64,000 nt of DNA from contig JAFATB010000022.1 of assembly GCA_019244185.1 (NCBI GenBank), positions 64,001 through 128,000 of the forward strand, in the 5' to 3' direction. Below, in pieces: positions 1 to 42,263 of this stretch; the stretch's first letter is position 1, and every line of letters starts with the position of its first letter. The notes under the pieces were generated by a model. That model did not search any database. It was not told the DNA's origin and saw nothing but the letters and a program-made list of their open reading frames with translations. The DNA comes from Acidobacteriota bacterium (GTDB lineage Bacteria > Acidobacteriota > Thermoanaerobaculia > Gp7-AA8). Both the position numbers and the translations under genes were made by a program.

Positions 1-234
1 CTGGATCGCCTTCGGCAGCAGCGCGTTGAAATTCAGATTGCTGCCGACGTAGACCGGCGTGAACGCGACGACGGTGCCGTCGTCTTCGACGGTCAGATAA
101 CGGACGTGCAGCTCGCCCCACAGCGAGCGTTCCATCGCCCGCAGCAGGCCGAACGAGAAATCGAGTCCGGTCGGCAGCGGCGCGAGCTGCGCGGCCCCGA
201 TCTCGTCGATCGACTCATAGACGTGCGCGCGCAT
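1..234 (-). CDS. 5' part of a putative FemAB-like/GNAT acyl- or aminoacyl-transferase (runs off left edge)
   Basis: Not in the ORF track. Manual translation from ATG at 234 gives MRAHVYESIDEIGAAQLAPLPTGLDFSFGLLRAMERSLWGELHVRYLTVEDDGTVVAFTPVYVGSNLNFNALLPKAIQ, open to base 1, and overlaps the 3' end of the kinase gene. The 'LRAMERS...RYLTVEDDGTVVAFTPVY' pattern resembles GNAT/FemAB-like N-termini. Confidence 0.55.
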   Translation of the reverse strand, partial: MRAHVYESIDEIGAAQLAPLPTGLDFSFGLLRAMERSLWGELHVRYLTVEDDGTVVAFTPVYVGSNLNFNALLPKAIQ

Positions 235-1225
235 GGCTCACGACCTTTCGCTGAAAGGCATCGAACGTGTCGCGGGTGTCGGAGGCGAGATCGCCGGCGA
301 GCGCGCGCACGCGTTGCCGCGCGTCGTCGCTCATGTCGTACGCAAACGGACCGAAGCCGCGCGCGGCCAGGAACGTCGCCGTCGCGCGGAACGTGCGCGG
401 CAGCACCGCATCGACCCACGCCGCGTCGGACACGGCGATGGTCCACGTGTTGACCAATTGCTCGATGAACGATAGCGCGGCGTCGACGAGCGCGGGATTC
501 TGCAGCGCGGGGAGCAGCGCGACGGCGATGAGCGTGCCGAGGTCGAAGGCGGGATCGCCGCAGCAAACGCCTTCGAAGTCGACCAGCGCGACCGGCGCGC
601 CGCGGCGCACGAGGAGGTTCTTGCTCCAGAGGTCCGCGTGGATGAGGCACTCGCGATGCGCTTCCATCTCCGCGCGGATGCCGTCCCATTGCTCGGCGAA
701 CACCTGCCGCGCGCCGGGCGCGAGCAGTCCGTCGAACACGATCCTGCGCACGATCGCTTCCTCCTGCGCGGGACGCGGCGACGCCTTGCCGCGCGTGCAC
801 GCGTGCACCGCGCCGAGGCCGCGGCCGAGCGGTTGCGCGGCCTCGAGGAGCAAATCGAAGTCGTCGCGAATGACGTTGAAGAGCACCGCGCGTCCTTCGC
901 CGACGTCCGTCATCGCCAGCGCGAACTCGTCGCGGTCGACGAACAGCACTTCCGGGATCAGCACCTCGCCTCCCGCGAACGCGCGGAACTGCCACAGTCC
1001 CGCGGCCTCGGAGAACACGCGCTCGCGCGGCAGCTTCACCGGCAGACGCTTCGGCTGCTCCGGAATGACTTTGAGGTACAGGCTGCGCCCGTAGACTTCG
1101 ACGCGATAGACGTAGTTGATGTTCGACAGCGCGCCGTCCTCGGTCACGGAGACCGGCGCGTCGTCGCGCAGCTTCAGACCACGGCGGACGATCGATGCGA
1201 CGTCGGCGACGACGGCGGTGGTCAT
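215..1225 (-). CDS. APH/choline kinase/methylthioribose kinase-like phosphotransferase
   Basis: Start MTTAVV at 1225, ATGA overlap with the upstream stop. Motifs NINYVYRV, LYLK, Brenner motif HADLWSKNLL, metal-binding VDFE, GDPAFDLG. Confidence 0.85.
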   Translation of the reverse strand: MTTAVVADVASIVRRGLKLRDDAPVSVTEDGALSNINYVYRVEVYGRSLYLKVIPEQPKRLPVKLPRERVFSEAAGLWQFRAFAGGEVLIPEVLFVDRDEFALAMTDVGEGRAVLFNVIRDDFDLLLEAAQPLGRGLGAVHACTRGKASPRPAQEEAIVRRIVFDGLLAPGARQVFAEQWDGIRAEMEAHRECLIHADLWSKNLLVRRGAPVALVDFEGVCCGDPAFDLGTLIAVALLPALQNPALVDAALSFIEQLVNTWTIAVSDAAWVDAVLPRTFRATATFLAARGFGPFAYDMSDDARQRVRALAGDLASDTRDTFDAFQRKVVSHARARL

Positions 1226-2184
1226 GGGATGGCCTCCGGCAACCCCATGTACGTGAGGCGGCTGTTCTGCATCTCCGTCGACCACGTATGCGCGGCGATG
1301 AGGCGCTCTTCGGGCGTCGTGTCGATGAGCCGCTTGCCCGGCCAGATCTCGTAGTCGCCGACGACGTCCGCGTGCTGCTCGAGCCCCGCCTGGAAGAAGA
1401 GCTCGCGCTTGATGATCACGTCTTGCGTCGGCAGTGTCGCCCACAGCTGGCGCCCGCGCGTGATGATGTCGAGGACGTGCGGCTTCGCCTCGGGATGCTC
1501 GCGAAGATAGTCGCGCACCGTCGAGCTCCCGACCGTGAGGTGGCGGATCTCGTCGATGTTCGCGCCGCGCTCGATCTGCGCCGCGGGTGGATCGAGCAGC
1601 CGCCACTTGCGCTCCGACAATTCCGCCGCCGGCGCGAGCACGCCTTCGACGAGGATCGTGAGGATCACCACGCCGGCGATGAAGTCACGCTGATCGCGGA
1701 TCAGCGGCAGCGCGAAGGCTTCGAGCGGATGCAGGATCGCGCGCGCGTCGTCGCCGCTGATGCGCCAGATCGTGTCGAACAGCTCCTGCTCCGGCACGCC
1801 GAGCTCGAGGAGATGTCCGCGGAAGACGCGCGAATGCCGCGCCTCGTCGATGAGCTGCGTGCCGAAGAACTCCATCGTGTAGACGTCCGGCGCCGCGGCG
1901 ATGATGTACGTGATCGAGCGCGTCGCGATTTCCTCGGCGATGGACCGGAACGCGAACTCGTTCATGATCGCCTCGCGCAGCGGCCCGGCCTCGAGCATGT
2001 ACGCCGGCACGCGCGCGTTCGGCGCGTGGCCGTGCACCATGCCCGCGAGCGTGCCCTGCGGCACGGCCGTGAACCAGTAGTCGAGATCGCAGTCGCGCGG
2101 CGTGAGCTCGAGGCGGCTCGCGCCTTCGATGAGCGTCGGCGCCTCCGTCCAATCCGCCTCGCGCGGAATCGTGGTGGTCGTCAT
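1222..2184 (-). CDS. vlmB: VlmB-like ferritin/HO-like non-heme diiron oxidase (putative azoxy synthase)
   Basis: Two D-E-x-x-H motifs (TQLIDEARH, NIDEIRH) plus EGVLAPAAELSERKW and YEIWPG...DTTPEER, recognised as VlmB-like family features. Adjacent to vlmO-like and vlmH-like genes. Confidence 0.8.
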   Translation of the reverse strand: MTTTTIPREADWTEAPTLIEGASRLELTPRDCDLDYWFTAVPQGTLAGMVHGHAPNARVPAYMLEAGPLREAIMNEFAFRSIAEEIATRSITYIIAAAPDVYTMEFFGTQLIDEARHSRVFRGHLLELGVPEQELFDTIWRISGDDARAILHPLEAFALPLIRDQRDFIAGVVILTILVEGVLAPAAELSERKWRLLDPPAAQIERGANIDEIRHLTVGSSTVRDYLREHPEAKPHVLDIITRGRQLWATLPTQDVIIKRELFFQAGLEQHADVVGDYEIWPGKRLIDTTPEERLIAAHTWSTEMQNSRLTYMGLPEAIP

Positions 2185-2197
2185 CTGGTCAACTCCT

Positions 2198-2662
2198 TTA
2201 CCAAGTGCCGGCGGCCTGGTAGTCGCGCTCGAAGCGGCGATAAGCCTCGTGCTTCACCGGCTCGAAGGCGGTGCCGAACGGCTTGTAGATGTTCCCGAAG
2301 ACGGAGCGGTCGCCGCAGAGATGGATCGGGAACGCGAGCATCGCCCACTCCAGCCGGCCGCCGATCGCGTACCAGATCGCGCAGAACAGCACCGTCGTGG
2401 CGAAGCTGTGGCCGAAGTTGTAGAGCTGGTGGATCACGGTCGGGATCGAGCGGTGCTCGCCCGAGCAGCGGAAGTAGTAGCAGTACAGACCGGGGAACGT
2501 GCCGAGGACGTCGGGCAGCGCGAACGCCCACGCGAAGTGCCACCAGTTCACCTCGCGCACGTGCAGCAGCAGCACGCCGAAGGCGGTGAACATGAGCACG
2601 GCCCAGTCGATGCGCTCGAGCGTGTAGATCGTCGGCGTGTGAAAGAGATTGTGTTTGTCCAT
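2198..2662 (-). CDS. vlmO: VlmO-like (DUF4260-type) small integral membrane metalloprotein, putative hydrazine (N-N) synthase
   Basis: 154 aa with several hydrophobic helices and the D/H/H/D pattern LPD...YNFGHS...IHLCGDRSVFGNIYKPF. Sits between vlmH-like and vlmB-like genes. Confidence 0.72.
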   Translation of the reverse strand: MDKHNLFHTPTIYTLERIDWAVLMFTAFGVLLLHVREVNWWHFAWAFALPDVLGTFPGLYCYYFRCSGEHRSIPTVIHQLYNFGHSFATTVLFCAIWYAIGGRLEWAMLAFPIHLCGDRSVFGNIYKPFGTAFEPVKHEAYRRFERDYQAAGTW

Positions 2663-2680
2663 GGCAGGGGATCCTTTGAT

Positions 2681-3808
2681 TTACGCGACTTGCATCGGCT
2701 TGCCCATGAGGTAGCCGTCGATGGCGGAGGCGACGGAGAGGCGCGACGGCGGATGGAACGCGAGCGCGCGCGCGGCGGCGTAGAGATACGAGACGTCGGG
2801 TGTCTTGATGAAGGCCATGCCGCCGAGGAGCTCGGTGGCGCGGACGGTGACCCGCTCGATGGCCTGCTGCACGGCGAAGCGCACCAGCAGCGACTGCACG
2901 AGGATGCCCTCGCCGCGCTCGCCGGTCTGCATCGCGCGCGCGACGCCTTCGAGCGATGTCATCGCGCCTTCGAGATCGATGGCGAGCTGCATCCGCTCGG
3001 CGATGTCGCCGCGTCCGTGCGTGAAGACTTTTTCCGCGAGCGCGGACGCGACGCCGAGGTACGAGGCGGAGACGAGCAGCTCGAACCAGAGGAAGCCGCC
3101 CGCTTCGACCGCGTCGAGACTCTCCTCGACCTCGGGGAAGAAGAGCTGTTCGTCGGCGATCTGCACGTCGGTGAGGCAGAGCTCCTCGCTCTCCGCGCCG
3201 CGAAGCACGGTGCTGCTCCAGAACGGCTTGCGGGTGATGCCTTCCGCGTCCGCGGGCACGACCGCCACCGCGCGGCGGCTGCCGTTGCCGTTGTTGCTCG
3301 GCACCGAGACGCTCGCGGTGAGGATGTGCATCGAGTTCGACAGGCTGCACGGCTTCTTGCTGCCGTTGATGCGATAGCCGCCGCCGTCCTGCGGCGTGGC
3401 CTTCATCAGCGGATCGAGGATGCTCGTGCCGGTGCGGCCTTCCGCGAACCCCGAGGCGACCAGGAGCTGCCCGCCCGCGATCTGCTGGAGCAGCTCCACC
3501 GTGTAGTCGCCGTAGAAGAGGTACTCGACCAGCGTCGCCACCGAGAAGTTGTGCATCGTCATCGCGATGGCGAGCGACGGCGAGCGCGTGGCCACGGCGC
3601 GGTGGATCTGGATGGCCTCCGCGGGCGTGGCGCCTTTGCCTCCGTGCTCGGCCGGCACGAGCAGCCCCGCGCCCTCGAGCTCGCGGAGGATGGTGAGGCC
3701 GGGATTGCCCGGCTTCTCGATCTCCATGAGCGGGATTTCCTGCAGTTTCGCGTCGAGTGTGGGGAGGAACTTTTCGAGCGTCTCCCGATCCCTTTTCAGG
3801 AAGTTCAT
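2681..3808 (-). CDS. vlmH: VlmH-like flavin-dependent alkylamine N-hydroxylase (acyl-CoA dehydrogenase fold)
   Basis: Start MNFLKR at 3808 with GAGGGG RBS. Motifs GLLVPAEHGGKG, SPSLAIAMTMHNF, ASGFAEGRT, INGSKKPCSLS, WFELLVSASY, ELLGGMAFI, LAFHPP closely match isobutylamine N-hydroxylase as recalled. Confidence 0.82.
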   Translation of the reverse strand: MNFLKRDRETLEKFLPTLDAKLQEIPLMEIEKPGNPGLTILRELEGAGLLVPAEHGGKGATPAEAIQIHRAVATRSPSLAIAMTMHNFSVATLVEYLFYGDYTVELLQQIAGGQLLVASGFAEGRTGTSILDPLMKATPQDGGGYRINGSKKPCSLSNSMHILTASVSVPSNNGNGSRRAVAVVPADAEGITRKPFWSSTVLRGAESEELCLTDVQIADEQLFFPEVEESLDAVEAGGFLWFELLVSASYLGVASALAEKVFTHGRGDIAERMQLAIDLEGAMTSLEGVARAMQTGERGEGILVQSLLVRFAVQQAIERVTVRATELLGGMAFIKTPDVSYLYAAARALAFHPPSRLSVASAIDGYLMGKPMQVA

Positions 3809-3849
3809 GACGTACCCCTCGCTGAATTGTTTTTTGCGCGACCGGTTCA

Positions 3850-3922
3850 TTTATAGAGCTGATCCATAAAAAAGTAAAGATCGAAAAATAGCATTGACAA
3901 GTTCCATAAGGACGCCTATAAA
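3850..3922. promoter_or_regulatory. Back-to-back sigma70-like promoters in the AT-rich divergent spacer
   Basis: + strand TTGACA (3894-3899), N17, TATAAA (3917-3922). - strand TTTACT (3878-3873), N17, TATAAA (3855-3850). The spacer is strikingly AT-rich for this high-GC window. Confidence 0.65.
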
Positions 3923-3976
3923 TGCAGACTCGCAATCCGGTCAGCTGCAGACTTCAGGAGAACCCACGGACTCACT

Positions 3977-6900
3977 ATGGCGACGCCTTCGCTGGTTCAT
4001 CTGCTTCAGGAGCGCGCGGACGAGCTTCCCGGCCACCGCTCGTACACCTTTCTCGCCGGCGGTGAAGAATCGGAGAGCCTGACGTTCGCGCGGCTGAACC
4101 GGCGCGCGCGCGCCATCGCCGCGCGGCTGCAGCGCCTCGGCGCGAAAGGGGAGCGCGCGCTGCTGCTCTATCCGGCCGGCACCGAATACATCGCCGCGTT
4201 TTACGGCTGCCTGGCCGCGGGAACCGTCGCGGTGCCCGGCTATCCGCCGCGCATGAACCGCAACCTCAACCGCCTCGAGTCCATCATCAAGGATGCGGAG
4301 GCGCGCTTCGCGCTGACTACCGACGCCGTCTACCGCCAGCTCAGCGAGCGCTTCGACGAGTCACCGAGCCTCAAACGCCTGCAGTGGGTCGTCACCGATC
4401 CGATCGCGGAAGATGAGGCGGACGGCTGGACCGATCCGAACGCGACGCGCGAGACGCTCGCGTTTCTCCAGTACACGTCCGCATCGACCTCCGCGCCGAA
4501 GGGCGTCATGGTCACGCACGGCAACATCCTCCACAACCAGGTCCTGATGAAGGAGGCGGTGCAGCACGACCGCAACACGATCGCCGTCTCCTGGCTGCCG
4601 CTGTTCCACGACATGGGACTGATCAGCATCGTCCTCTCGTCGCTGTACAACGGCATCCCGTGCTATCTCGTCGCGCCGGTCGATTTCCTGAAGAAACCGC
4701 GGCTGTGGCTCGAGGCGATCAGCAAGTACGGCGCGACGTTCAGCGGTGCGCCCGACTTCGGCTACCAGCTCTGCGTCGAGCGCATCAGCGCCGAGGAGCG
4801 CGCGAAGCTCGACCTGTCGAAGTGGCGGGTCGCGTTCAACGGCTCGGAGCCGATCCGCTCGGACACGCTGCGCCTCTTCACCGAGACGTTCGCCGAATGC
4901 GGCTTTCGTCCGACCTCGATGTTCCCGTGCTACGGCCTCGCGGAGAACACGCTCTTCGCGAGCGGCCGCTTTCACGACGGTCCGACGTCGTTCTCGCGCG
5001 CGAGTCTCGAGCGTCATCGTCCCGCGCCGGCGACGGAAGGTCATTTGGCGCAGCTCGTCAGTTGCGGCAAGGCGCTGCTCGACTCCCGCATCGTCATCGC
5101 CGATCCGAAGACGCGCCGACGCTGCGGCGAAGGTGAAGTCGGCGAGATCTGGCTGGCCAGTCCGAGCGTCGCGCAGGGCTACTGGAATCAGCCGCGGCTG
5201 AGCGAGGAAACGTTCCGCGCGCAGACGCTCGACGGCGACGGTCCGTTCCTCCGCACCGCGGACCTCGGCTTCTTCCACGCCGGTGAGCTCTTCATCACCG
5301 GCCGCATCAAGGACCTCATCATCATCCGCGGACGCAACCTCTGCCCGCAGGACATCGAACAGACGGTCGAAGCGTGCGACGCGGCGATCCAGCCGACGTT
5401 CGTGGCCGCGGTCGCGGTCGACGCGGGCACCAGCGAGCGGCTGGTCATCGTCGCGGAAATCCGGCGCGAGGCGCGACGCGAGCTCGATACCGAGGAGATC
5501 GTGCGGAAGATCCGGAACGCGGTAGCGGCGGAGTTCGCGGTGGAAGTGTCCGCGGTCGTGCTGCTGCGTCCGGGACAACTGCCGAAAACGTCGAGCGGCA
5601 AGACGCAGCGCGCGCACGTGAAGCAGCAGTTCCTCGACGGCCAGCTGAAGACGGCCATGATCGCGGAGTGGCGTGACGAGAACGCGTTCCGCGCGAACGA
5701 TCCCGAGCCGCCGCGCGCGCCGAAACACGCGCCGACGCAGGAGCGCATCGAGAGCTGGCTCGTGCAGCGCATCGCCGCGCAGACGAAGATCCCCGCGACG
5801 CGCATCGACCGCACCGCCTCGCTCCTCGTCTACGGACTCGACTCGGTCGTGCTCGTGGCGATCTTCGGCGAGCTCGAAGACGCGTTCCGCGTCACGCTCG
5901 ATCTCGACCGCATCTTCCACGGCGAGCCGTCGCTGCGCGAAGTCGCGCAACGCGTGCACGCCGCGACGCGCGCGACGGCGGCGACGGCAGATGTTCCCGC
6001 GCCTGCGCCTGTTGCCGCGCCCGCGCGTCCGCAGCCGGTGCCCACCGAAGCGCCGCCCGCGCAACCGGCATCCGTGCTGCCGATCGCGAAGCCGAAGAAG
6101 CTCACGCTCGGCAACACCGACGCGACGGCCGCGTCTCCGACGCCGAAGCCGGTGCTCGCCGCGGTGCCCGACACCAGACACGAAGAACGCGCGCCGAAGC
6201 CGAAGCATCCCTTCCGCACGCACGTCAATCCCGAGCTCGGGCGCGTGCTCGAGCAGATGGCCATGGACAAGTCGTTCGTGCGCGGCGAGGGGAGCTGGCT
6301 TTGGGATGAAGCGGGGCGCCGCTACCTCGATTTCCTCGCGCAGTACGGCGCGCTACCGTTCGGCTTCAATCCGCCGCGTATCTGGTCGGCGCTGAACGCC
6401 GTGCGCGCGACCGCGGAGCCGAGCTTCGTGCAGCCGTCGTATCTCAACGCCGCGGGCGAGCTCGCGAAACGACTGCTCGCCGTCGCGCCTCCGGGCATGG
6501 CGTACGTGACGTACGCGAACAGCGGCGCGGAAGCGATCGAGGCGGCGATCAAGCTCTGTCGCTCGACGACGAAGCGCCACGACATCCTCGCCGCGGGCAA
6601 CGGCTTCCACGGCAAGACGCTCGGCGCGCTCTCCGCGACGGACAAGGAGAAATACCAGAAAGGCTTCGGCGCGCCGGTACCCGGCTTCCACTACGTCCCG
6701 TACGGCGACGCGGACGCGCTGCGGCGCGCGCTCGCCGGCGGCCGCTACGCCGCGTTCCTCGTCGAGCCGATCCAGGGCGAGGGCGGCATCGTTGAGCCGC
6801 CGGCGGGTTACCTCCGGCTCGCGCGCAAGCTGTGCCGCGAGGCGGGCACGCTCTTCGTCGCCGACGAGATCCAGACGGGACTCGGCCGCACTGGCGCGAT

Positions 6901-8839
6901 GTTCGTCTGCCGCGAGCTCGGCATCACGCCCGACGTGATGACCGTCGCGAAAGCGCTCGGCGGCGGTCTCGTTCCGATCGGCGCGTGCCTCGCCACCGCG
7001 GCCGCGTACAACGAAGACTTCGCGCTGAAGCACACGTCGACGTTCGCGGGGAACACGCTCGCATGCCGCGCCGGCATCGCGACGCTCGATCTGTTGGAAG
7101 CCGACAGCGGCGCGCTCGTCGCGCAGGTGAAAGCGAACGGCGCACGATTGAAGGACGCGCTGCTCGCGCTCGCCGATCGCTATCCCGGTCTCATCGCGGA
7201 AGTCCGCGGACGTGGCTACTTCCTCGGCCTGCGCCTCGGGCTCGACCGTCATTCCGTCGACGACGGTCTCCTCGGCTACCTCGGCGAACAGGAAGCGCTG
7301 ACCGCGATCGTCGTCAGCCATCTGCTGCACGTCGAAGGCGTGCGCGTCGGCTTCACGCTCAATCACGGCGGCGTGCTGCGCATCGAGCCGCCGCTCACGG
7401 CGACGTGGGAGGAGTGCCAGTTCTTCCTCGCCGCGCTCGAGCGCGTGCTCGTGCGCATCGACCGCCGCAACCTCGCCGCGCTGACCTCGCAGGTGACGGG
7501 CTTCCGTCCTGCCGTCGCGGCGGAAGTCGTGAGACCCCGCGTGACGGAGCTCCCGCGAAAAGCGCGGCTCGACGTGCGCGCCGGCGATGGACGCTTCGCG
7601 TTCCTCGTCCATCCGCTGGCGTGGAAGGACTACGGCGACATCGACGAGAGCCTCGCGCCGCTCTCCGGCGAACAGCTGGCGAAACTCTCCGGCGCGCTGG
7701 CCGACAACTTCGATCCGATGGTCGTCGGCGAGACGCGTATCACCGCCGAGAACGGCAAGACCGCGTACGGCGAGTTCATTCTCGTGCCGCGCCGCGCCGA
7801 GGAGCTGCGCGCGCTGCCGCCCGAACAGGCGGTGAGCGAGATCCGCGAAGCCGTGCGCGTGGCGCAGAAGCGCGGCGCGAAGATCGTCGGCCTCGGCGCG
7901 TACACCTCCGTCGTCACGCAGGGCGGCCTCTCACTGGTCGGTGAAGGCCTGCCCGCGATCACCACTGGAAACTCCTACACCGTCATTGCCGCGCGGCAAA
8001 CGATCCGTCTCGCGTCGGCTGATCGAGGCTGGCAGCTCCCGCGACGAACCGTCGCGGTCCTGGGCGCCGGCGGCTCGATCGGGCAGGCGCTGTCCGTCCT
8101 CCTTGCGCGCGACACCGGCCGTTTGCTGCTGATCGGGAACCCCGCACATCCCGACGAAAGCCGTGAGCGTCTGCTGCAGGTCGCGGGACGGATCGTTTGC
8201 TCGCTCGATCAATTGAAAGGATTCGCGCCCGGTTCGGTCGCCAGCTGGGTTGCAGAGCTGGCGATCGAGGCGCCGCAGAAGCCGGATCGCGCGACGTTGA
8301 TTCGCCTGGGCGAGGAGTTCATCGCGCGCACGGGCGCCGTGGAGCTCGGCGTCGACGCCGCGCAGTTCCTGCCGCGCGCGGACGTCGTGGTCTGCTGCAC
8401 GAGCACGACCGAGCGCATGGTCACCGAAGAAACGCTGCGGCGCGAAGCGATCGTGTGCGACGTCTCGCGGCCGTCGAACGTCGGCGCGCACGTGCGCGCG
8501 CGGCGCCCGGACGTCCTCGTGCTCGACGGCGGCGTGGTGCGGTTGCCCGGCAGCTCGCAACTCGGCTTCAACGCCGGCATCGGCAAAACGAACGCGTACG
8601 CCTGCATGGCGGAAACGATGATGCTCGCGCTCGAACAGCGCTATCGCGACGCGAGCCTCGGATTCGATCTTTCGCTCGACAACGTGCTGGAGATGGAACG
8701 GCTCGCGGAAGCAACGGGCTTCCGCGTGGTCTCACGGAAACAGGCCCCCGAAGCATTGACAGTGATGCGACTCCTTAGTCGGGAGGAGAACGAGGCGCAA
8801 GTCCTCGAGGGGGCTCCACCGCTTTCCGCGACGTCGTGA
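3977..8839 (+). CDS. Fatty acyl-AMP ligase - ACP - class III aminotransferase - acyl-ACP reductase-like fusion (putative fatty amine synthase)
   Basis: FAAL: AFLQYTSASTSAPKGV, SWLPLFHDMGLI, PCYGLAE, GRIKDLIIIRGRN, LPKTSSGK. ACP: GLDSV. Aminotransferase: NSGAEAIEAA, FHGKT, EPIQGEGG, DEIQTGLGRTG, VAKALGGG. Reductase: FAFLVHP, GLGAYTSVV, TTGNSYT, GAGGSIG, YACMAETM. Confidence 0.85.
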   Translation: MATPSLVHLLQERADELPGHRSYTFLAGGEESESLTFARLNRRARAIAARLQRLGAKGERALLLYPAGTEYIAAFYGCLAAGTVAVPGYPPRMNRNLNRLESIIKDAEARFALTTDAVYRQLSERFDESPSLKRLQWVVTDPIAEDEADGWTDPNATRETLAFLQYTSASTSAPKGVMVTHGNILHNQVLMKEAVQHDRNTIAVSWLPLFHDMGLISIVLSSLYNGIPCYLVAPVDFLKKPRLWLEAISKYGATFSGAPDFGYQLCVERISAEERAKLDLSKWRVAFNGSEPIRSDTLRLFTETFAECGFRPTSMFPCYGLAENTLFASGRFHDGPTSFSRASLERHRPAPATEGHLAQLVSCGKALLDSRIVIADPKTRRRCGEGEVGEIWLASPSVAQGYWNQPRLSEETFRAQTLDGDGPFLRTADLGFFHAGELFITGRIKDLIIIRGRNLCPQDIEQTVEACDAAIQPTFVAAVAVDAGTSERLVIVAEIRREARRELDTEEIVRKIRNAVAAEFAVEVSAVVLLRPGQLPKTSSGKTQRAHVKQQFLDGQLKTAMIAEWRDENAFRANDPEPPRAPKHAPTQERIESWLVQRIAAQTKIPATRIDRTASLLVYGLDSVVLVAIFGELEDAFRVTLDLDRIFHGEPSLREVAQRVHAATRATAATADVPAPAPVAAPARPQPVPTEAPPAQPASVLPIAKPKKLTLGNTDATAASPTPKPVLAAVPDTRHEERAPKPKHPFRTHVNPELGRVLEQMAMDKSFVRGEGSWLWDEAGRRYLDFLAQYGALPFGFNPPRIWSALNAVRATAEPSFVQPSYLNAAGELAKRLLAVAPPGMAYVTYANSGAEAIEAAIKLCRSTTKRHDILAAGNGFHGKTLGALSATDKEKYQKGFGAPVPGFHYVPYGDADALRRALAGGRYAAFLVEPIQGEGGIVEPPAGYLRLARKLCREAGTLFVADEIQTGLGRTGAMFVCRELGITPDVMTVAKALGGGLVPIGACLATAAAYNEDFALKHTSTFAGNTLACRAGIATLDLLEADSGALVAQVKANGARLKDALLALADRYPGLIAEVRGRGYFLGLRLGLDRHSVDDGLLGYLGEQEALTAIVVSHLLHVEGVRVGFTLNHGGVLRIEPPLTATWEECQFFLAALERVLVRIDRRNLAALTSQVTGFRPAVAAEVVRPRVTELPRKARLDVRAGDGRFAFLVHPLAWKDYGDIDESLAPLSGEQLAKLSGALADNFDPMVVGETRITAENGKTAYGEFILVPRRAEELRALPPEQAVSEIREAVRVAQKRGAKIVGLGAYTSVVTQGGLSLVGEGLPAITTGNSYTVIAARQTIRLASADRGWQLPRRTVAVLGAGGSIGQALSVLLARDTGRLLLIGNPAHPDESRERLLQVAGRIVCSLDQLKGFAPGSVASWVAELAIEAPQKPDRATLIRLGEEFIARTGAVELGVDAAQFLPRADVVVCCTSTTERMVTEETLRREAIVCDVSRPSNVGAHVRARRPDVLVLDGGVVRLPGSSQLGFNAGIGKTNAYACMAETMMLALEQRYRDASLGFDLSLDNVLEMERLAEATGFRVVSRKQAPEALTVMRLLSREENEAQVLEGAPPLSATS

Positions 8840-10452
8840 GCGCGCTCGGCGAGCTCGCCGCATGGGCGCACGGGCTGCGTCTCGACGACGTGCCGCCGTT
8901 CGTGCGCGCGCGTGCCGTCGACCAACTGCTCTCGACGCTCGGCGCGATGTACGCCGGCGCCGCGAGCGAGCTCGGTCCGAAGCTCGACCTCTTGTTCGCG
9001 GACGTTGCGCCGGAGACGACGCGCGAGGCCATGCGCATGGCCTCGTGGTCGATGGTGCTCGACTACGACGACGTCATGCTCGGCGGTCACACGAGCCATT
9101 CAGCGGTCGTCGTGCCGCTCGCGTTCGCGGACGGGCATTCCGGCGCGGAGCTGCTGCTCGCGCAGATCGTTGCGAACGAGATCGCCGCGCGCGTGAACAT
9201 GGTCTGCGCCGTCGGCTCGACGCGCGGGCAGATGGCGACGCACCTTCATCTCCTCGCCGCCGCCGCCGCGCGTGCGAAGCTCGAAGGTCTCGATGCCGCG
9301 ACGTTCGCGGATGCGCTGTCGTTCGCGCTCGCGTATCCCGCGCAGGCGCTCTATCCCGCGTTTCTCGGCAGCGACGCGAAGGCGCTCTGCGCCGCGCTGC
9401 CAGTCCGCGCCGGCATCGAAGCGGTCGACGCGGTGCGCGCGGGACTGCGCGCGCCGGGTGAGGTACTCGACGGCCCGCGCGGCTTCTTCGCGACGCATGC
9501 GCGCGTGCCGGTGCGCGATTTTCTCGGCGGACTCGGCACGCGCTGGCACACCGCGACGAACAGCTTCAAGATCTACCCCGTCTGCGGCTATCTCTGCTCC
9601 GCGGTCGACGCGACGCTCGACCTCGTGCGCACGTATGACGTCGACGCGGACGACGTCGCGTCCGTCGACGTGCACGCGTCGCTCTTCACGGTCGGCATGG
9701 ACGCGCATTCCGTTCCCTACATTGACGGCCCGCGCTCACCGATCGCGGCGCTCACGTTCTCGACGCCGTTCGTGATCGCGTCTGCGATCCGCGCGCGTGC
9801 ATTCACGCCGGCGCAGCTCGAACGCGCGTGGATCGAAGACGAGCGCGTGTGGCAGCTCGCCGCGCGCGTACAAACGCGCCACGATCCGCGCCTCACGCGC
9901 GACGCGCTCACCGCGGACATCCCGATCGGCGCCGCGCTACGCCGCGTGAAGAAGTGGCAGGCCGGGGGATTCGCGTGGAGCATTGCCGCGACGGCATTCG
10001 GCCGCGCGGGGCGTCTGCGCCGTCCGGTCGAAACGCTGCGTCTCATCGCGGGACTCACCGCTGCGGCAGGCGATCGCGCGCCGATGGAGTTCGAGCGCGC
10101 GACGAAGCCGATGGGCGCGCGCGTCGCGATGCGTCTGCGCGACGGCCGCACGCTCGAACGCGAGGTGTCGATCCCGCGCGGCTTCGCGGGCGGCATTGAT
10201 GACATCCGCACGCTGATGATTCACAAGTTCCTCGCCGCCGCCGCGCCGGAGCTCGGCAGCGCGCGGGCCGCCACCGCCGCCGTCGCGCTCGAACACTACG
10301 AGTCGCTCTCGCCCGACGGCGTCGCGCGCCTCGTCGACGTGCTCGCGCGCGAGACGCCGCCGTTCACCCGCGCATCAGCCGCGGCGGCAGCATCCACTCC
10401 AGCGATGCGTGGCGGCCGCTCCAGCGAAGGCCGTAGCAGCCGCCTTTCTTGA
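8836..10452 (+). CDS. MmgE/PrpD family protein (VlmK-like lyase/dehydratase candidate)
   Basis: GTGA overlap with the upstream fusion gene. Motifs LDYDDVMLGGHTS, ANEIAARV, LDGPRGF, FKIYPVCGY, FSTPFVIA. The 3' end overlaps sixA on the opposite strand. Confidence 0.8.
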   Translation: MSALGELAAWAHGLRLDDVPPFVRARAVDQLLSTLGAMYAGAASELGPKLDLLFADVAPETTREAMRMASWSMVLDYDDVMLGGHTSHSAVVVPLAFADGHSGAELLLAQIVANEIAARVNMVCAVGSTRGQMATHLHLLAAAAARAKLEGLDAATFADALSFALAYPAQALYPAFLGSDAKALCAALPVRAGIEAVDAVRAGLRAPGEVLDGPRGFFATHARVPVRDFLGGLGTRWHTATNSFKIYPVCGYLCSAVDATLDLVRTYDVDADDVASVDVHASLFTVGMDAHSVPYIDGPRSPIAALTFSTPFVIASAIRARAFTPAQLERAWIEDERVWQLAARVQTRHDPRLTRDALTADIPIGAALRRVKKWQAGGFAWSIAATAFGRAGRLRRPVETLRLIAGLTAAAGDRAPMEFERATKPMGARVAMRLRDGRTLEREVSIPRGFAGGIDDIRTLMIHKFLAAAAPELGSARAATAAVALEHYESLSPDGVARLVDVLARETPPFTRASAAAAASTPAMRGGRSSEGRSSRLS

Positions 10453-10840
10453 GATCGACGTCGCCGCTCATGCCCGTGAGCGAAAGCATGAACGCGGAGA
10501 GCGTCGGCTCGTGGCCGACAAAGTACGCGGCCGGTTCCTTGACGTCGTGCAGGAACTCACGGAACGCATCGGGATCGCTGCCCGGCACGAGCGCATCCGT
10601 GATGTAAAACGCGAGCTTGCCGCCGTATGCCTCCGCCACCCACGCCCCCGTCTCCCGCGCGCGCACCAGCGGGCTGCTGTAGATCGCCTCGGCCTCGGGG
10701 ACGAGGCGCGCGAGCGTCTTCGCGATCTCCTGCATCTTGGCGTTGCCTTCCGCCGTGAGACGGCGTTCGGCATCGGCCTTGTGGCCTTTGTCTTCGGCGA
10801 TGCCGTGGCGGAGGAGGATGAGCAGTCCGTCGCGTTTCAT
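10364..10840 (-). CDS. sixA: Phosphohistidine phosphatase SixA (histidine phosphatase family)
   Basis: C-terminal part of track ORF 10364..13069. Start MKRDGLLILLRHGIAED with ATGA overlap. Motifs RHG, RRLTAEG, SSPLVRARET, VGHEP, LKKGG. Confidence 0.85.
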   Translation of the reverse strand: MKRDGLLILLRHGIAEDKGHKADAERRLTAEGNAKMQEIAKTLARLVPEAEAIYSSPLVRARETGAWVAEAYGGKLAFYITDALVPGSDPDAFREFLHDVKEPAAYFVGHEPTLSAFMLSLTGMSGDVDLKKGGCYGLRWSGRHASLEWMLPPRLMRG

Positions 10841-13800
10841 GACGTCTTGATCGTCTCGTCGGCCGCGGTGATGAGGCCGCAGAGCGTCATGTCCTTCGCG
10901 TACGCGGCGATCTGGTCGACCGCGTACAGGCCGAGGCGGCGGTAGCTCTCGAACTGCGACTCGCTGAAGAACTGATCGCCGGTGGTCTCGTGCGGGAACG
11001 TCGGCGAATTCATGGCGTAGTTCAGCACATCGCGCGGTCCTTTCTTGTAGACCACCGGCTTGATGTAGAGCAGGCGGCCGTTCTCCGCGTCCTCGCCGTC
11101 GACCGCTTTGTAGTTGATGGTGCCGACCGCGCAGTATTTCTCCGGCGTCCGCTTCTTCTTGTCGGGCGGGATGATGCCGATGTCGTCGATGTCGATCGGC
11201 ACGCCGAGGTCGATGCGGATCTTGCGCAGCGCGTTGCCGAGATCGTCGTAGATGTACTTCGGATCGGCGCCCGCGTCGGTGACGACGATGCAGTGGCAGC
11301 GGCGCAGCACCATCTCGTAGATGCCGAGGTTCTCGAAGTGACCGCCGTCGGAGAGGTAGACGTAGCCGTACGTGTCGTCGGAGTTGCCCGTCGCCTCGCG
11401 CAGGAACGGGATGATCGACGAGCGCGGGTTCCGGCGGCGATACGTTTCGAGCGGTCCGTTGCCGGCCAGACCGGGATTGCCGAGCCACCAGCCGAGGCGG
11501 ACGTTGAAGAGCGTCATGAGGAACGCGAGCGCCGGCGACGAGTGGTAGCCCATGTTCGGGCTCGCGGCCGCGCCGGAGATCGTGACCGCGGTGCCGAGCG
11601 AGATCTCGCCGTAGTCGCGCGTGTCGCGGTAGCCGAGGTTGCGGTTGCCCGAGGCGAGCGGCGACACGGTCATCGATTCGGCCTTGCGTTCCTGCCACGC
11701 GAGGTCGGCGCCACTGGTGAGATTGAGCGTGACGTTGATGACGTGCATCGGGCGCGCGTTCGCGAGCGGCTTGAGCGTCCCCGGGAACTTCGCCTCGATG
11801 CGCAGGCGGTTGTCGAGCATGCGATGCACGCCGTCGATCGTGCTCCACGTGAACGGCCGCGCGTCGACGGTGAGGCCGCTGAACGCGGGATCGGTGGCCA
11901 GCGTTTTCGTGGCGATGATCTCGTTCACTTCGCCGAGGAGCGTGAGGCCCGCCTGCGCGAGGAACTGCGCGGCGGGGACGAGGAGATCGTCGGCGCAGAG
12001 CAGCGGCATCGGCGACGGATAGAGGGCGTCGTCGAACGCTTTCTCGATGAAGCGGCGGTTGCGCAGCGGGCGCTGCGCGCGATCGGCGGCGGGCGTTTTC
12101 GGATCGAACTCGCGCGGCAGATCGCGCGTGGCGATGAGCGCATTCAGCGATTGCGAGACAGCGCGCGCCCGCGCCTCGGTCGTCGCCGGCACGTCGGCCA
12201 GCTGCTCTTTCTTCGCCGCCCAGAGAAACGCGAGACGCGTTCCGGCCGCCGCGTTTTTCAGCGCGAGGTACGCGCCGTCGGCGTCGCGGAAGCTGTACAC
12301 CCAGATGTACTCCGGACGGAGGTCGTGCATCTCGAGGTTGTCGTCGGCGTCGAAGCCGGTGAAGGCGTTCGGACGCCGGCTCCAGCGCGAGGCGCCGAGG
12401 TACGCGCGCACGAGGCGGTTGCGATACATCGCGTGCATCGAGAAGACGTTCACGCCGATGAAGCGCGAGATCAGCAGCGCGACCGATGGCAGCCCGAGCA
12501 CGAGCAGCAGCAGCGCCCACGGATCGCTGTTCTGCACGAGGCGGAGGTGTTCGAGCGAGCGGACGCGCGGCACGTTCGCAACCGGCTTCTCGACGATCTT
12601 GGCGGGCAGCTTCGCGACGTTCGCGATGTACGTGCGCGACGCGGCGTCGGCGCGGCGCACGTCGGCCGAGATCGCGCTCGCGTCGACCGGCTTGAATTCC
12701 GGAAACGTTTTCTGCAGCGCCCACGTGGTGCCGGTGGAGATGAGCGCCAGGATCCAGAGGACGAACAGCGGCACGGCGATGGCGAGGCCGAGATTCATCG
12801 CCGTCGACGACGCGGACGCGTCCTCTTTCGACTGGCCGGCGTTCGTCTTCGAGCTGCGGCCGGCGAGGAGCGAGAAGAGGCCCGCGCCGCCGCCCGCGGC
12901 GGAGAGGAGCTTCGGCAGGTGATGGATCGCGACCGGGCCGTAGATCGCGACCGCGCAGAGCACGGCCCAGCCGATGCCGCCGATGAGCACCCAACCGCAC
13001 GCGCGCGCCCACCACTCGCGATCGAAATCGTGGTTCTGCTGGCTGGCGATGCCGACGAAGAGCGCGCATTGGAGAAACAGCACGCAGATGACGAGCGGCA
13101 CGGCGAAGCAGACGTACATCGCCGTCGCGGCGCTGAGCGTGCCAGCGTCGTTGATCGGCCAGCGCACGGCGTCGACGAGCTTCGTCGGCGCGAGCGGATC
13201 ATCGAAGAGGCGCGTGAGCCGCCAGCCGAGGAGGCCGCCGAGCGCGCCCGCGGCGAGCGCCGCGGCAAGCTCGAGGGAGAGCCGGAGCAGCCTGGGCCGC
13301 TTGGGGGTGATCGAATCGCGGCGCGCGGCGACGGCCACACTGAAGTAGCGCGCGAAGAAGACGCCCCACGCGACGAGACAGAGCGCGACGCTGGCGACGA
13401 AGAACCAGCGCGGGCCGAGCTGCCTGCCGGGATTGGCGGCGAGATACCACGCCCACGCGAGCATCAGCGCGAACGTGCCGGCGAGGAACGGCGCGAGGCA
13501 GCGCAGGATGAAGCTGCCGTCCGTCAGCGCGCTCTTCTTCTCCGACGCCGTATCGGCGATCGGCCGTTTCCCCACCTGATACAGCAGCGCCTCGGCGAGC
13601 AGCAGCATGCCCAGGATCGTGACGAACTTCGTGCTCGACACGCCGCCGACGTCCACCGCCGGATGCCTCACCGCGGCGACGACGAGGCGCGGGATCGCGA
13701 GCACGCCGGCGAGCAGCGGGATCAGCACGATCCAGTTCAGCAGCAGGTTGCGCAGATACGTGGCGACGAGCGCCCACGTGTCGGCGGAGAGGATGCCGAG

Positions 13801-17193: not shown

Positions 17194-17198
17194 CGCGT

Positions 17199-17957
17199 TC
17201 ACTCTCTCATCTGCCACGGCGCGACGCGCTGTAGCAGCCATTGAATGGTGGCGTTGATGGTGATCCCGATCAGCGAGCAGACGATCACGCCGACGTACAG
17301 ATTCTCGATCCGCATCGTCTGCCACGCCAGCCAGATGATCGACCCGATCCCGCGCGTTGTCACGGTGAATTCGATGGCGATGGTCACCAGCAAGCCGATA
17401 TTCGCGGCGATGCGCACGCCGCTCAGGATCATCGGCAGGCTGCCCGGCAGCAGCACGTGGCGGAACAGCGCCATGCGACTGCCGCCGTAGCTGCGCACCA
17501 CTTCGAAGTAGAGCGGCGAGATGTCGCGCGCGCCCGCGGCGGCGTTGATCAGCGTCGGGAAGAAGACCGTCAGCGCGATCGCGGCGAGCGTCGACCATTC
17601 CGAAACGCCGAAGATCACGATGAAAAGCGGGAAGAGAACGATCTTCGGAATCGGATGCAGCGCGGCCAGGAACGGATCGGCGATGCGGCGCATGCGCGGC
17701 GACCAGCCGACGATGAGGCCGAAGACGATGCCGGGGATGCCTCCGAGCATCGCGCCGCCGAGAAAGCGCATCAGCGTGAGCGAGACATTCTCGAGCAGAT
17801 CCTCGCGCCACAGGCGCGGGAACCCGGCCAGGATGCGCGTCGGCGGCGGGAAGATGGTCGACGAGATCCACTCGTTGCGCGCGGCCAGCTCCCACGCCGC
17901 GAACAGCACGACGGCGATGGCGGCGGCGATGGCGCGGTCTTTCGCGGTCGGCTTCAT
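17199..17957 (-). CDS. ABC transporter permease (SsuC/TauC/NitT type)
   Basis: Start MKPTAKD with ATGA overlap. FPPP, HPIPKIVLFPLF, EAA-like loop 'EVVRSYGGS', LPGSLPMILSG. Confidence 0.88.
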   Translation of the reverse strand: MKPTAKDRAIAAAIAVVLFAAWELAARNEWISSTIFPPPTRILAGFPRLWREDLLENVSLTLMRFLGGAMLGGIPGIVFGLIVGWSPRMRRIADPFLAALHPIPKIVLFPLFIVIFGVSEWSTLAAIALTVFFPTLINAAAGARDISPLYFEVVRSYGGSRMALFRHVLLPGSLPMILSGVRIAANIGLLVTIAIEFTVTTRGIGSIIWLAWQTMRIENLYVGVIVCSLIGITINATIQWLLQRVAPWQMRE

Positions 17958-21790: not shown

Positions 21791-21801
21791 GATGTCTCCT
21801 T

Positions 21802-21837
21802 GACGTTGGACGAGTCCGGGACGTTGGACGAGTTCGG
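21802..21837. repeat. 18-bp direct repeat x2 just upstream of the TonB operon RBS
   Basis: GACGTTGGACGAGTCCGG followed directly by GACGTTGGACGAGTTCGG (1 mismatch). Confidence 0.6.
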
Positions 21838-21914
21838 ACGGGGCCAGTATAGCCGCCGCGCCGCGCGAAGCAATCGGCGGACACCGACCGACTTGCCTCC
21901 GTATCTGAGGACGC

Positions 21915-23423: not shown

Positions 23424-23435
23424 AATCGCGCGTCT

Positions 23436-36681: not shown

Positions 36682-36742
36682 CGCGCGCCATGCTACCGCC
36701 GCCCCGCCGCCGCGAGTACACCGTTTTGCTACGATTCGCACC

Positions 36743-42259: not shown

Positions 42260-42263
42260 CGCG

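Follow-up and report, generated by a model that had tools for sequence, protein, structure and literature searches.

Aliphatic azoxy compounds (valanimycin, the elaiomycins, KA57-A and the azodyrecins) and the VlmO/VlmB chemistry are described from actinomycetes only in the literature cited here (PMC9379638, PMC11705231, PMC13755311). In the valanimycin pathway, VlmJ and VlmK set the precedent for phosphorylation and dehydration, as outlined in PMC13755311. The account of azodyrecin biosynthesis in PMC9379638 assigns the VlmA family to PF09924, offers in Ady1 a precedent for the formation of a methyl ester, and already proposes that a fatty acid is reduced and transaminated to supply the long-chain amine. 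As reported in PMC9594044, TamA (adenylation-ACP) and TamH (transaminase-thioester reductase) convert fatty acids to amines in vitro.

The same azoxy core can now be seen, at the gene level, in Acidobacteriota, at this locus and at no fewer than ten related ones. The window analyzed here, a 64,000-nucleotide stretch of contig JAFATB010000022.1 from an Acidobacteriota bacterium, carries at positions 1-10452 two operons. The leftward (minus-strand) one encodes, in order, a VlmH-like flavin monooxygenase, a VlmO-like protein, a VlmB-like diiron enzyme, an APH-fold kinase and a FemAB-like transferase, and extends past the left edge of the window into a thioester reductase/hydrolase gene; the rightward (plus-strand) one encodes a 1620-aa FAAL-ACP-aminotransferase-acyl-ACP-reductase fusion followed by a PrpD-family protein. 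Neighboring genes in both operons share 4 to 20 nt or are separated by gaps of 13-18 nt, which points to an operon-like organization. The gene order and identities claimed for this region in the original prediction were borne out, and the locus is likely to be an "aliphatic azoxy" biosynthetic gene cluster, akin to those for valanimycin and azodyrecin, operating by the pathway proposed below. The impression that the flanking genes look acidobacterial is confirmed by RpoB: over the C-terminal half of this protein, identity is 97% and 94% to two Thermoanaerobaculia metagenome-assembled genomes, 70-77% to other Acidobacteriota and (first segment) 61% to Kitasatospora. By RpoB sequence, the host genome is placed in Thermoanaerobaculia, and the host appears to be a soil acidobacterium with a complete-looking gene set for a fatty azoxy compound.

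For comparison, loci were gathered around VlmB homologues, 10 from Acidobacteriota and 70 others, mostly from actinomycetes; in the latter 70, a match was counted when it covered at least half of the query. The VlmB-like non-haem diiron enzyme (1222..2184, minus strand, 320 aa) is a near homologue of a protein with a solved structure, "Putative VlmB homolog" (PDB 6d9f/8wvr; E 2.4e-106, residues 4-319 of 320), and its relatives are named "VlmB-like protein" at NCBI. Residues E84, E114, H117, E180, E212 and H215 are invariant in 81/81 aligned sequences and are putative diiron ligands, read from the E, ExxH, E, ExxH pattern and not from a structure. The VlmO-like hydrophobic membrane protein (2198..2662, minus strand, 154 aa) has four residues, D51, H85, H114 and D118, that are invariant in 77/77 homologues. 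These columns number D51, H82, H110 and D114 in the Kitasatospora and Streptomyces homologues (loci L059, L074, L022 and L012), the numbering of the VlmO residues found essential by mutagenesis (PMC11705231). This protein is 34-47% identical, over about 150 residues, to the VlmB-adjacent gene product in 66 of the 70 non-acidobacterial loci. Its match to Pfam DUF4260 (PF14079) is insignificant (E 0.11, 12.9 bits; cut-off 27), and the match of Ady6 to the same domain is termed "weak" in the azodyrecin paper (PMC9379638).

The VlmH-like protein, an ACAD-fold (group D) flavin monooxygenase, is encoded at 2681..3850 (minus strand) by a longest open reading frame of 389 aa, with a likelier start at 3808 (375 aa), at conserved MNFL codons. 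It contains Pfam Acyl-CoA_dh_M/N domains, and its best matches are DszC-type monooxygenases (NCBIfam DszC, 2.1e-16; PDB 3x0x, 1.1e-13), which, judging from these scores, it resembles more than acyl-CoA dehydrogenases. Identity to the monooxygenase gene product found in 62/70 non-acidobacterial loci is 41-50% over about 380 residues, a figure that refers to cluster homologues, the comparison set containing no named VlmH sequence. The alternative that the three proteins are ordinary, unrelated enzymes that do not co-occur elsewhere was not borne out: homologues of all three are found side by side in most of the 70 other loci, and the VlmH-, VlmO- and VlmB-like assignments stand.

An AT-rich divergent intergenic spacer (3851..3976, no strand) lies between the two operons, with a GC content of 0.43 versus 0.65-0.70 in the flanking 2-kb bins. 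Its description as an AT-rich spacer with back-to-back sigma70 promoters thus holds for the composition and only in part for the promoters, which are promoter-like hexamers recognized by eye: rightward, TTGACA (3894-3899) and TATAAA (3917-3922), and leftward, TTTACT and TATAAA, each pair 17 nt apart. A consensus promoter scan of 3700-4100 returned 0 promoter-like sites; both hexamer pairs break its rule requiring T at position 6.

The megasynthase (3977-8839, plus strand) is a single protein with the domain order A-ACP-TA-TR. Its FAAL domain (aa 1-580, 3977..5716, plus strand; PF00501, 8.9e-66) matches the NCBIfam models for fatty-acid--AMP ligase (1.7e-130) and FadD32 (1.4e-118), both under the curated cut-offs, and is followed by an ACP domain (aa 594-660, 5756..5956, plus strand; PF00550, 1.4e-10) whose translation shows a GLDS motif. 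The class III PLP aminotransferase (TA) domain (aa 767-1158, 6275..7450, plus strand) matches PF00202 (1.9e-85) and the aminotransferase part of PigE (1.4e-154). The C-terminal acyl-ACP/thioester reductase (AAR) domain (7547..8839, plus strand) is of the PigE N-terminal and cyanobacterial acyl-ACP reductase type, with matches to NCBIfam PigE (positions 50-191, E 1.2e-39), AcACP_reductase TIGR04058 (1.2e-22), PDB 4ppm (2.9e-23) and PDB 6jzq (1.4e-16). This architecture fits the TamA plus TamH logic of turning a fatty acid into an amine (as set out in PMC9594044) and supports the suggestion of a fatty-acid-derived amine. The MmgE/PrpD-family protein (8836..10452, plus strand, 538 aa; PF03972, 4.5e-22; PF19305, 1.8e-18), whose start overlaps the megasynthase stop by 4 nt, scores 29 bits against the model of true PrpD (2-methylcitrate dehydratase), with a cut-off of 950, and is 32-41% identical to PrpD genes in 36 of the 70 non-acidobacterial loci.

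The window edge cuts the gene for the FemAB_like (PF04339) tandem-GNAT transferase, whose first 78 codons fall at 1..234 (minus strand); the complete gene (G000:C7:63095-64234) encodes 379 aa with matches to PF04339 (E 4.7e-10) and Acetyltransf_6 (3.3e-07). A sequence search of PDB with this protein gave no match. A Foldseek search with its AlphaFold2 model (pLDDT 94.2) returned as the nine best distinct PDB chains (ranks 1-10) only aminoacyl-tRNA-dependent transferases, led by FemX (7z6a, E 2.8e-13, TM 0.61/0.69) and followed by Sbb17/Sba18, L-PGS and MprF. Acetyl-CoA-dependent tandem-GNAT acetyltransferases score nearly as well as FemX (2wpw, E 2.2e-11), so that aminoacyl-tRNA is a candidate donor for the enzyme. 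PF09924 is present inside the coordinates of loci L059, L022 and L012 and is absent from the cluster, the hits in this genome being confined to contigs C2 and C5; a search of the L005 genome for PF09924 found none. With PF04339 here and PF09924 elsewhere, the transferase could at most work as VlmA does and falls outside the VlmA family.

The APH-fold kinase (215..1225, minus strand, 336 aa; PF01636, E 1e-14) starts at 1225, sharing 4 nt with the end of the preceding gene, and has as its best NCBIfam match the lanthionine-synthetase kinase LxmK (1.5e-09, far under the cut-off). PF19279, the YegS/DAGK-type family of VlmJ, matches inside locus L022 and is absent from the cluster, with the hits in this genome (C23, C4 and C7:321076) all distant. 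The original prediction of a transferase and a kinase in the VlmA and VlmJ roles is therefore upheld for analogues and fails for homologues: judging from the predicted FemX/MprF-like fold, another family, PF04339, appears to stand in for VlmA, and an APH kinase, by analogy, appears to stand in for VlmJ. As neither is homologous to its valanimycin counterpart, both assignments draw on fold, position and analogy.

To the left of base 1 lie the remainder of the Fem-like gene, a gene for a thioester-reductase/alpha-beta-hydrolase (TR), an ICMT-family methyltransferase and a DinB protein; the flavin reductase, seryl-tRNA synthetase and exporter that had been expected there are not among them. The single PF01613 gene of the genome, the candidate flavin reductase (VlmR), is on contig C14 and hence not linked to the cluster, and the genome has no extra seryl-tRNA synthetase, its single gene being on contig C13, so that two vlm features are missing. 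The ady cluster, as presented in PMC9379638, is likewise without a synthetase. Domain searches of the cluster revealed no amino-acid decarboxylase. The locus encodes two reductases of the aldehyde-forming kind, one as the AAR domain and one as the separate TR gene, a doubling that the scheme proposed below leaves unexplained.

In the 10 acidobacterial loci, the H, O and B genes are found in all 10, the kinase, FAAL and TA in 9 each, the Fem-like transferase, TR and AAR in 8 each, and PrpD and ICMT in 7 each. Some of the absences are due to truncation, as L008 is a 3.7-kb contig and L006 stops inside the AAR domain. In L038, H, O, B, the kinase and ICMT are present and the Fem-like, TR and PrpD genes have no match within 10 kb. 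The amine module is divergent in L005, L007, L010 and L011, co-directional in L004, L009 and L014, and, in L014 and L038, divided between one gene for FAAL-ACP and another for TA-AAR. Among the 70 other loci, an aminotransferase was detected in 65, and partial TR matches (26-31% identity over about 230-280 residues) in 10, whereas the Fem-like transferase and the APH kinase were found in 0/70. Recurrence of the gene set in 10 acidobacterial loci argues against a chance assembly; most or all of the architecture, as judged from gene content, is common to ten Acidobacteriota genomes, and the cluster is shared among at least four acidobacterial lineages.

According to the proposed pathway, the FAAL domain would adenylate a free fatty acid and pass it to the ACP in cis, acyl-S-ACP would be reduced to the free aldehyde by the C-terminal acyl-ACP reductase domain, and the class III transaminase domain would turn this aldehyde into a primary fatty amine, following the TamA plus TamH logic within one protein. 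The VlmH-like monooxygenase would then N-hydroxylate the amine, with reduced flavin supplied by an unlinked reductase, and the FemAB-like enzyme would acylate the hydroxylamine oxygen with an amino acid, serine (from seryl-tRNA) being the likeliest. The N-N bond would be formed by the VlmO-like membrane enzyme, rearranging the O-aminoacyl ester to an N-alkyl-N'-amino-acid hydrazine that the VlmB-like diiron enzyme could oxidize via azo to azoxy. Phosphorylation of the seryl (or threonyl) side-chain hydroxyl by the APH kinase and elimination of the phosphate by the VlmK-like PrpD-family protein would yield a 2-(alkyl-azoxy)acrylate, whose carboxylate is probably methyl-esterified by the ICMT-family membrane methyltransferase encoded just left of the window. 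On the best reading of the gene content, the predicted product is an azoxy amino-acid lipid with a long alkyl chain that has probably been dehydrated and methyl-esterified. The narrower proposal, that the PF04339 protein belongs to a second family that was recruited independently for aminoacyl-tRNA-dependent O-aminoacylation of hydroxylamines and that the product is a long-chain 2-(alkyl-azoxy)acrylate methyl ester, is tentative and is held with slightly less than even confidence.

Since the aminoacyl-tRNA specificity of the Fem-like enzyme is not fixed by these sequences and there is no dedicated aminoacyl-tRNA synthetase, the core N-N chemistry could be kept while leading to another end product, through a non-serine amino acid or a halt at a hydrazine or azo lipid. 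Threonine would give an azoxy-crotonate, and alanine would be used as in azodyrecin, which draws on alanyl-tRNA (as described in PMC9379638); in the case of a halt, the kinase and PrpD-family protein would act on some other substrate. Three of the 10 acidobacterial loci, including one truncated contig, have no PrpD in their flanks. We regard such an outcome as unlikely, given that valanimycin biosynthesis is known to dehydrate its seryl unit with just such a pair of kinase and PrpD-family protein (as laid out in PMC13755311) and that the pair is linked in 7/10 acidobacterial loci; the full conservation of the VlmB ligand-type residues, in turn, argues for oxidation past the hydrazine.

Two further explanations were considered. 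The megasynthase and the vlmH/O/B operon might be mere neighbors with separate functions, the amine ending up in a membrane lipid or aminolipid and the azoxy genes drawing their hydroxylamine substrate from elsewhere, and the occurrence of TA-AAR didomain proteins in many other lineages (at about 50% identity in Streptomyces, Singulisphaera, Symbiobacteriaceae and Limnochordales) suggests that the module is not azoxy-specific. However, in 9 of the 10 acidobacterial loci FAAL and TA are no more than 10 kb from VlmB, the linkage persists whichever of two gene orders is found and whether the module is fused or split, an aminotransferase adjoins H in 65 of the 70 other loci, and no amino-acid decarboxylase is seen in the cluster, all of which makes separate functions very improbable. 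It is likewise very improbable that no N-N bond is formed, the VlmO- and VlmB-like proteins having diverged to some other oxidative lipid modification that yields, for example, an N-oxygenated or hydroxamate-type lipid. The acidobacterial members are known from sequence alone, and O is only 34-47% identical to its homologues in the other loci, but neither the four essential VlmO residues nor the six ligand-type residues of the diiron enzyme vary in either phylum, and the full enzyme context (hydroxylase, aminoacyl-transferase-like enzyme, O and B) is kept. The preferred reading remains an aliphatic azoxy pathway fed by a fatty amine.

Acidobacteriota are abundant in soil, hard to culture and chemically almost unexplored. 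Our literature search found no publication on the acidobacterial cluster and no N-N bonded natural product of Acidobacteriota; if the PF04339 transferase and the azoxyacrylate ester are as proposed, the product would be, as far as is known, the first such compound from this phylum. The cluster also offers a candidate self-contained, one-protein fatty-acid-to-amine catalyst, and it suggests what one subfamily of the little-understood FemAB_like proteins may do. Its apparent natural stand-ins for VlmA and VlmJ, which are non-orthologous to them, would help define the truly essential parts of the pathway. Genome mining in actinobacteria, as described in PMC9379638, was anchored on PF09924 plus VlmH, a strategy that would miss the acidobacterial clusters.

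Compared with the valanimycin (vlm) cluster of Streptomyces viridifaciens and Kitasatospora setae, the locus has in common a VlmH-type hydroxylase, a VlmO-type protein with the same four residues, a VlmB-type enzyme and the kinase plus PrpD-family pair for dehydration. It differs in its acidobacterial host, in having no VlmR, VlmL or VlmD, in its transferase (PF04339 rather than PF09924) and kinase (APH-fold rather than PF19279/YegS-type), and in its predicted source of the amine, which comes from valine decarboxylation in valanimycin and would come here from a fatty acid via the FAAL-ACP-TA-reductase fusion. The azodyrecin cluster (ady/azd, BGC0002805; Streptomyces) shares, in the proposed pathways, a long-chain amine made from a fatty acid, the VlmH/VlmA/VlmO/VlmB-type steps and carboxyl methylation. 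There, however, reductase (Ady2/AzdP) and transaminase (Ady4/AzdQ) are encoded by separate genes, whereas here they belong to a fusion of four domains that brings its own FAAL and ACP along; a PF09924 transferase and alanine stand against a Fem-like transferase, a kinase plus PrpD and a predicted dehydrated serine; and a PF04072-type methyltransferase (Ady1) and a desaturase stand against an ICMT-family methyltransferase. The Fem-like enzyme shares the predicted tandem-GNAT fold with FemX, the MprF C-terminal domain and Sbb17 (Foldseek E 2.8e-13 to 1.8e-11, query TM 0.53-0.61) and is set apart from them by sequence identity of only 11-16%, by its Pfam family, PF04339, and by the proposed acceptor, a hydroxylamine oxygen. 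Finally, TamA plus TamH (tambjamine YP1) and PigE (prodigiosin) have the same adenylation-ACP and transaminase-thioester-reductase domains, the reductase domain here matching the N-terminal part of PigE and cyanobacterial acyl-ACP reductase, and the two-gene amine module of L014 and L038 is TamA/TamH-like. In the cluster described here, by contrast, the four domains reside in one protein, the adenylation domain is of the FAAL type, and the amine, which is joined to a bipyrrole in the TamA plus TamH system, would enter the proposed azoxy pathway.

The genes at window positions 1 to 10452 make up two divergent operons; judging from sequence comparisons, their core belongs to the VlmH/VlmO/VlmB system. 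The source genome (GCA_019244185.1; 5.3 Mb in 26 contigs, the window being C7:64001-128000) has a GC content of 0.65 to 0.70 around this locus, with many spurious open reading frames (ORFs), so real genes were told from such ORFs through codon-position GC. The minus strand carries five overlapping or nearly abutting genes that encode an ACAD-fold protein (the VlmH-like protein H; 2681-3850, with the conserved start more likely at 3808), a hydrophobic 154-aa protein (the VlmO-like protein O; 2198-2662), a 320-aa protein with E...ExxH...E...ExxH motifs (the VlmB-like protein B; 1222-2184), an APH kinase (215-1225), and a FemAB_like/GNAT protein of the PF04339 family (Fem-like), which runs leftwards from position 234, is cut by the window edge, and comprises 379 aa once the DNA left of the window is added. 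The same operon continues, with a GTGA overlap, into a gene whose 679-aa product joins an NAD_binding_4 thioester reductase to an alpha/beta hydrolase (TR); farther left lie, in convergent orientation, genes for a membrane methyltransferase of the ICMT/PEMT family and for a DinB_2 protein. The plus strand encodes a four-domain megasynthase of 1620 aa (3977-8839), consisting of FAAL, ACP, class III aminotransferase, and a C-terminal reductase that matches the N-terminal part of PigE and the cyanobacterial acyl-ACP reductase (AAR), followed by an MmgE/PrpD-family protein (8836-10452) that falls outside PrpD proper (29 bits versus the cut-off of 950). As read from ORFs and domains, this is the gene order put forward in the original prediction. 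With the DinB and ICMT genes at one end and PrpD at the other, the cluster measures roughly 14.6 kb (C7:59.8-74.5 kb). The 126-nt spacer between the operons has a GC content of 0.43; of the back-to-back sigma70-like promoters proposed there, the hexamers are visible by eye but miss the rule of the promoter-scanning tool, which found no sites in this region. An Rfam search of positions 1-12000 returned no family at the gathering score.

Homologue searches and residue conservation bear out the predicted Vlm-like nature of all three core proteins. B aligns over its whole length with the structures 6d9f/8wvr, deposited in PDB as “Putative VlmB homolog” (E value of 2.4e-106), and is matched by 1507 database proteins (E ≤0.001), some of which carry the NCBI name “VlmB-like protein”; none of its six presumed iron ligands varies among the 81 sequences compared. 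According to a passage in a review (PMC11705231), VlmO requires D51, H82, H110, and D114. A 77-protein alignment of O shows no variation at D51, H85, H114, and D118 (numbered as in the window protein), and in the Kitasatospora and Streptomyces rows these positions number exactly D51, H82, H110, and D114. A 19-residue Kyte-Doolittle scan of O detected no segment at 1.6; with 15 residues, hydrophobic stretches were seen at 21-35, 43-57, and 87-101, positions similar to those in the Kitasatospora griseola homologue (21-36, 40-54, and 84-109). As for H, it has DszC-type flavin monooxygenases, rather than acyl-CoA dehydrogenases, as its nearest curated and solved relatives.

A scan for VlmB relatives, with one genome per species, confirmed 299 of 403 candidate stretches, and the best 80 of these (loci L004-L083) were searched by tblastn with all cluster proteins, counting matches that covered at least half of the query. 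By their titles, 10 of the 80 loci belong to Acidobacteriota and 70 to Streptomyces, Kitasatospora, other actinomycete genera, and Actinomycetota MAGs. The expected co-occurrence of the core proteins is evident in the 70 non-acidobacterial loci among these best 80 of 299, with H present in 62 (41-50% identity) and O in 66 (34-47%). The aminotransferase was matched in 65 of the 70 (33-41%), the PrpD protein in 36 (32-41%), FAAL in 2 (24-30%), and the APH kinase, Fem-like protein, ACP, AAR, ICMT, and DinB in none; matches to TR, found in 10 of the 70, were partial (26-31% identity over ∼230-280 residues). The ten acidobacterial loci, titled as Pyrinomonadaceae, Thermoanaerobaculia, Bryobacterales, Holophagales, “Ca. 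Angelobacter,” and Acidobacteriota, all encode H, O, and B; the kinase, FAAL, and aminotransferase are found in nine loci each, the Fem-like protein, TR, and AAR in eight each, the PrpD protein and ICMT in seven each, and DinB in five. Some of the missing parts reflect truncation, because the contig of locus L008 spans just 3.7 kb and L006 stops within the AAR domain. Locus L038 truly lacks matches to the Fem-like protein, TR, and PrpD in its flanks (within 10 kb), which leaves its aminoacyl-transfer step unaccounted for. Relative to the operon, the amine module runs divergently in some acidobacterial loci and in the same direction in others, so the linkage has outlived rearrangement. Three of the eight TR-bearing loci (L004 13191-14348, L007 13127-14173, and L014 13167-14315) lack the alpha/beta-hydrolase half of TR, and this domain is therefore either dispensable or supplied elsewhere. 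In a sample of 400 other genomes of the same phylum, none had a VlmB match at an E value of 1e-30, so the cluster is rare among the genomes searched, a count that is silent on function.

TamA and TamH, the fatty-amine enzymes of tambjamine YP1, are described in PMC9594044 as converting fatty acids to amines in vitro; the megasynthase follows the same logic in one fused chain. Among the best 120 relatives of its aminotransferase-reductase half, 68 (the window protein included) also have an AMP-binding domain, the named ones coming from Terriglobia, Pyrinomonadaceae, and Acidobacteriota MAGs. Two acidobacterial loci that are more distant, L038 and L014, have the module split in a TamA/TamH-like manner into FAAL-ACP and aminotransferase-reductase genes; the split module and the exporter genes beside it are at L038 391-3358 and 3564-8185 and at L014 3402-8189 and 16973-18172. 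Aminotransferase-reductase didomain proteins of ∼890-1000 aa with ∼50% identity (P0445-P0505), some of which carry a TubC_N docking domain (PF18563), are also encoded in Streptomyces, Singulisphaera, Symbiobacteriaceae, and Limnochordales, a spread that suggests a wide distribution of TamH-like fatty-amine modules.

VlmA is assigned to PF09924 and the VlmJ/VlmK pair to PF19279/PF03972 in an excerpt of PMC9379638. Loci L059, L022, and L012 each include a PF09924 gene within their coordinates, an assignment that is certain for L022 (a single chromosome) and, for the other two, assumes a contig match from coordinates within the locus ranges; L022 also contains a PF19279 gene. No PF09924 gene was found in the genome of locus L005 or near the cluster in the source genome, where the copies are confined to contigs C2 and C5, and no PF19279 gene was found near the cluster either. 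Thus, the places of VlmA and VlmJ in the actinomycete clusters are taken in the acidobacterial one by a PF04339 protein and an APH kinase, which, belonging to neither family, are analogues. The Fem-like protein represents a narrow subfamily, with three full-length clusters at 45-81% identity among 1.84 billion representatives and the next full-length matches at ≤33%; a sequence search of PDB gave nothing meaningful (best E value of 0.044, phage baseplate proteins). In a fold search with its AlphaFold2 model (pLDDT of 94.2, pTM of 0.92), the top solved structures were the aminoacyl-tRNA-dependent transferases FemX, Sbb17/Sba18 peptide synthases, L-PGS, and MprF. Acetyl-CoA-dependent tandem GNATs come close behind, and the predicted fold therefore supports a VlmA-like role without proving it.

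The flavin reductase, seryl-tRNA synthetase, and exporter expected to the left of base 1 are absent from the DNA left of the window, and profile searches of the genome revealed no flavin reductase and no second seryl-tRNA synthetase linked to the cluster. Only in L038 and L014 do MacB/HlyD-type exporter genes adjoin the cluster (MacB/FtsX in both, plus an ABC ATPase and HlyD in L038). A FAD_binding_3 flavoprotein accompanies the cluster (plus strand, C7:55104-56675 of the source genome, or 9104-10675 of the stretch L003); it is 64-76% identical in L004, L005, L007, L009, and L010, and its gene is directly upstream of the FAAL gene in L004 and L009, both from Pyrinomonadaceae. This protein may be a tailoring enzyme or may belong, with the neighbouring ABC1/UbiB kinase, to unrelated quinone metabolism. 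On the right, convergent to the PrpD gene, minus-strand genes encode a 1252-aa protein with a short patatin-like match only (10837-14595) and a 1080-aa NRPS-like adenylation-PCP-thioesterase protein (14653-17895). Both were rejected as cluster members: they are conserved in no related locus, where the weak A_T_TE matches are cross-matches to the FAAL domain, and therefore appear to be a pair of their own, perhaps concerned with lipids. The remaining window genes look ordinary and unrelated to the cluster; they code for Sortilin/BNR-repeat proteins, CarboxypepD_reg-type and classical TonB-dependent receptors, a PAS histidine kinase, an alkyl-sulfatase-like protein, and a multicopper oxidase (23424-26345 and 42174-45248 on the plus strand, 33352-36837 and 19736-22108 on the minus strand).

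The flanking genes are acidobacterial, as originally proposed. In its C-terminal half, RpoB shares 97% and 94% identity with the proteins from the L010 and L007 genomes (Thermoanaerobaculia MAGs), respectively, and 70-77% with those from other acidobacteria, with the Kitasatospora protein matching in two separate segments (61% and 73%). Non-cluster flank genes (for the ABC1 kinase, the FAD_binding_3 protein, and an Na/H exchanger) are syntenic with Thermoanaerobaculia loci. In the maximum-likelihood tree of VlmB, the window protein groups with four Thermoanaerobaculia rows (99/98), nested within a nine-row acidobacterial clade (99/99). The genome contains two rpoB matches, a full one (C19:48957-53105; 1397-aa open frame) and a second one (C16:57926-60235; 796-aa open frame, model positions 3-669) that could stem from contamination (a level of 1.54% is given), from duplication of a fragment, or from a break in the assembly. 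Seven DNA sequencing runs cover the stretch wholly or in part, three of which may be its source; no RNA run containing it is listed.

In the literature covered, which includes few subscription journals, no publication joining Acidobacteria with azoxy or VlmB terms and no aliphatic azoxy cluster outside actinomycetes were found. The antiSMASH class “azoxy-crosslink” had one occurrence, in a table. The diiron protein already bears the NCBI label “VlmB-like,” and a specialist would probably recognise the cluster core.

For the mechanism as a whole, we infer that the megasynthase would convert a fatty acid, through acyl-AMP, acyl-S-ACP, and the aldehyde, to a primary amine that would be N-hydroxylated by H; the Fem-like enzyme would then transfer an amino acid from aminoacyl-tRNA to the hydroxylamine oxygen, O would rearrange the ester to a hydrazine, and B would carry out a four-electron oxidation to the azoxy group. 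The APH kinase and the PrpD protein would phosphorylate and then eliminate the side-chain hydroxyl in the manner of VlmJ/VlmK, for which phosphorylation and elimination are outlined in a part of PMC13755311. It is this kinase/PrpD pair, and nothing else in the cluster, that points to serine as the likely amino acid. Members of the ICMT family act on lipid-anchored carboxylates, and the one encoded here would probably methylate the carboxyl group. The expected product would be a valanimycin-azodyrecin hybrid in the form of a long-chain 2-(alkyl-azoxy)acrylate methyl ester.
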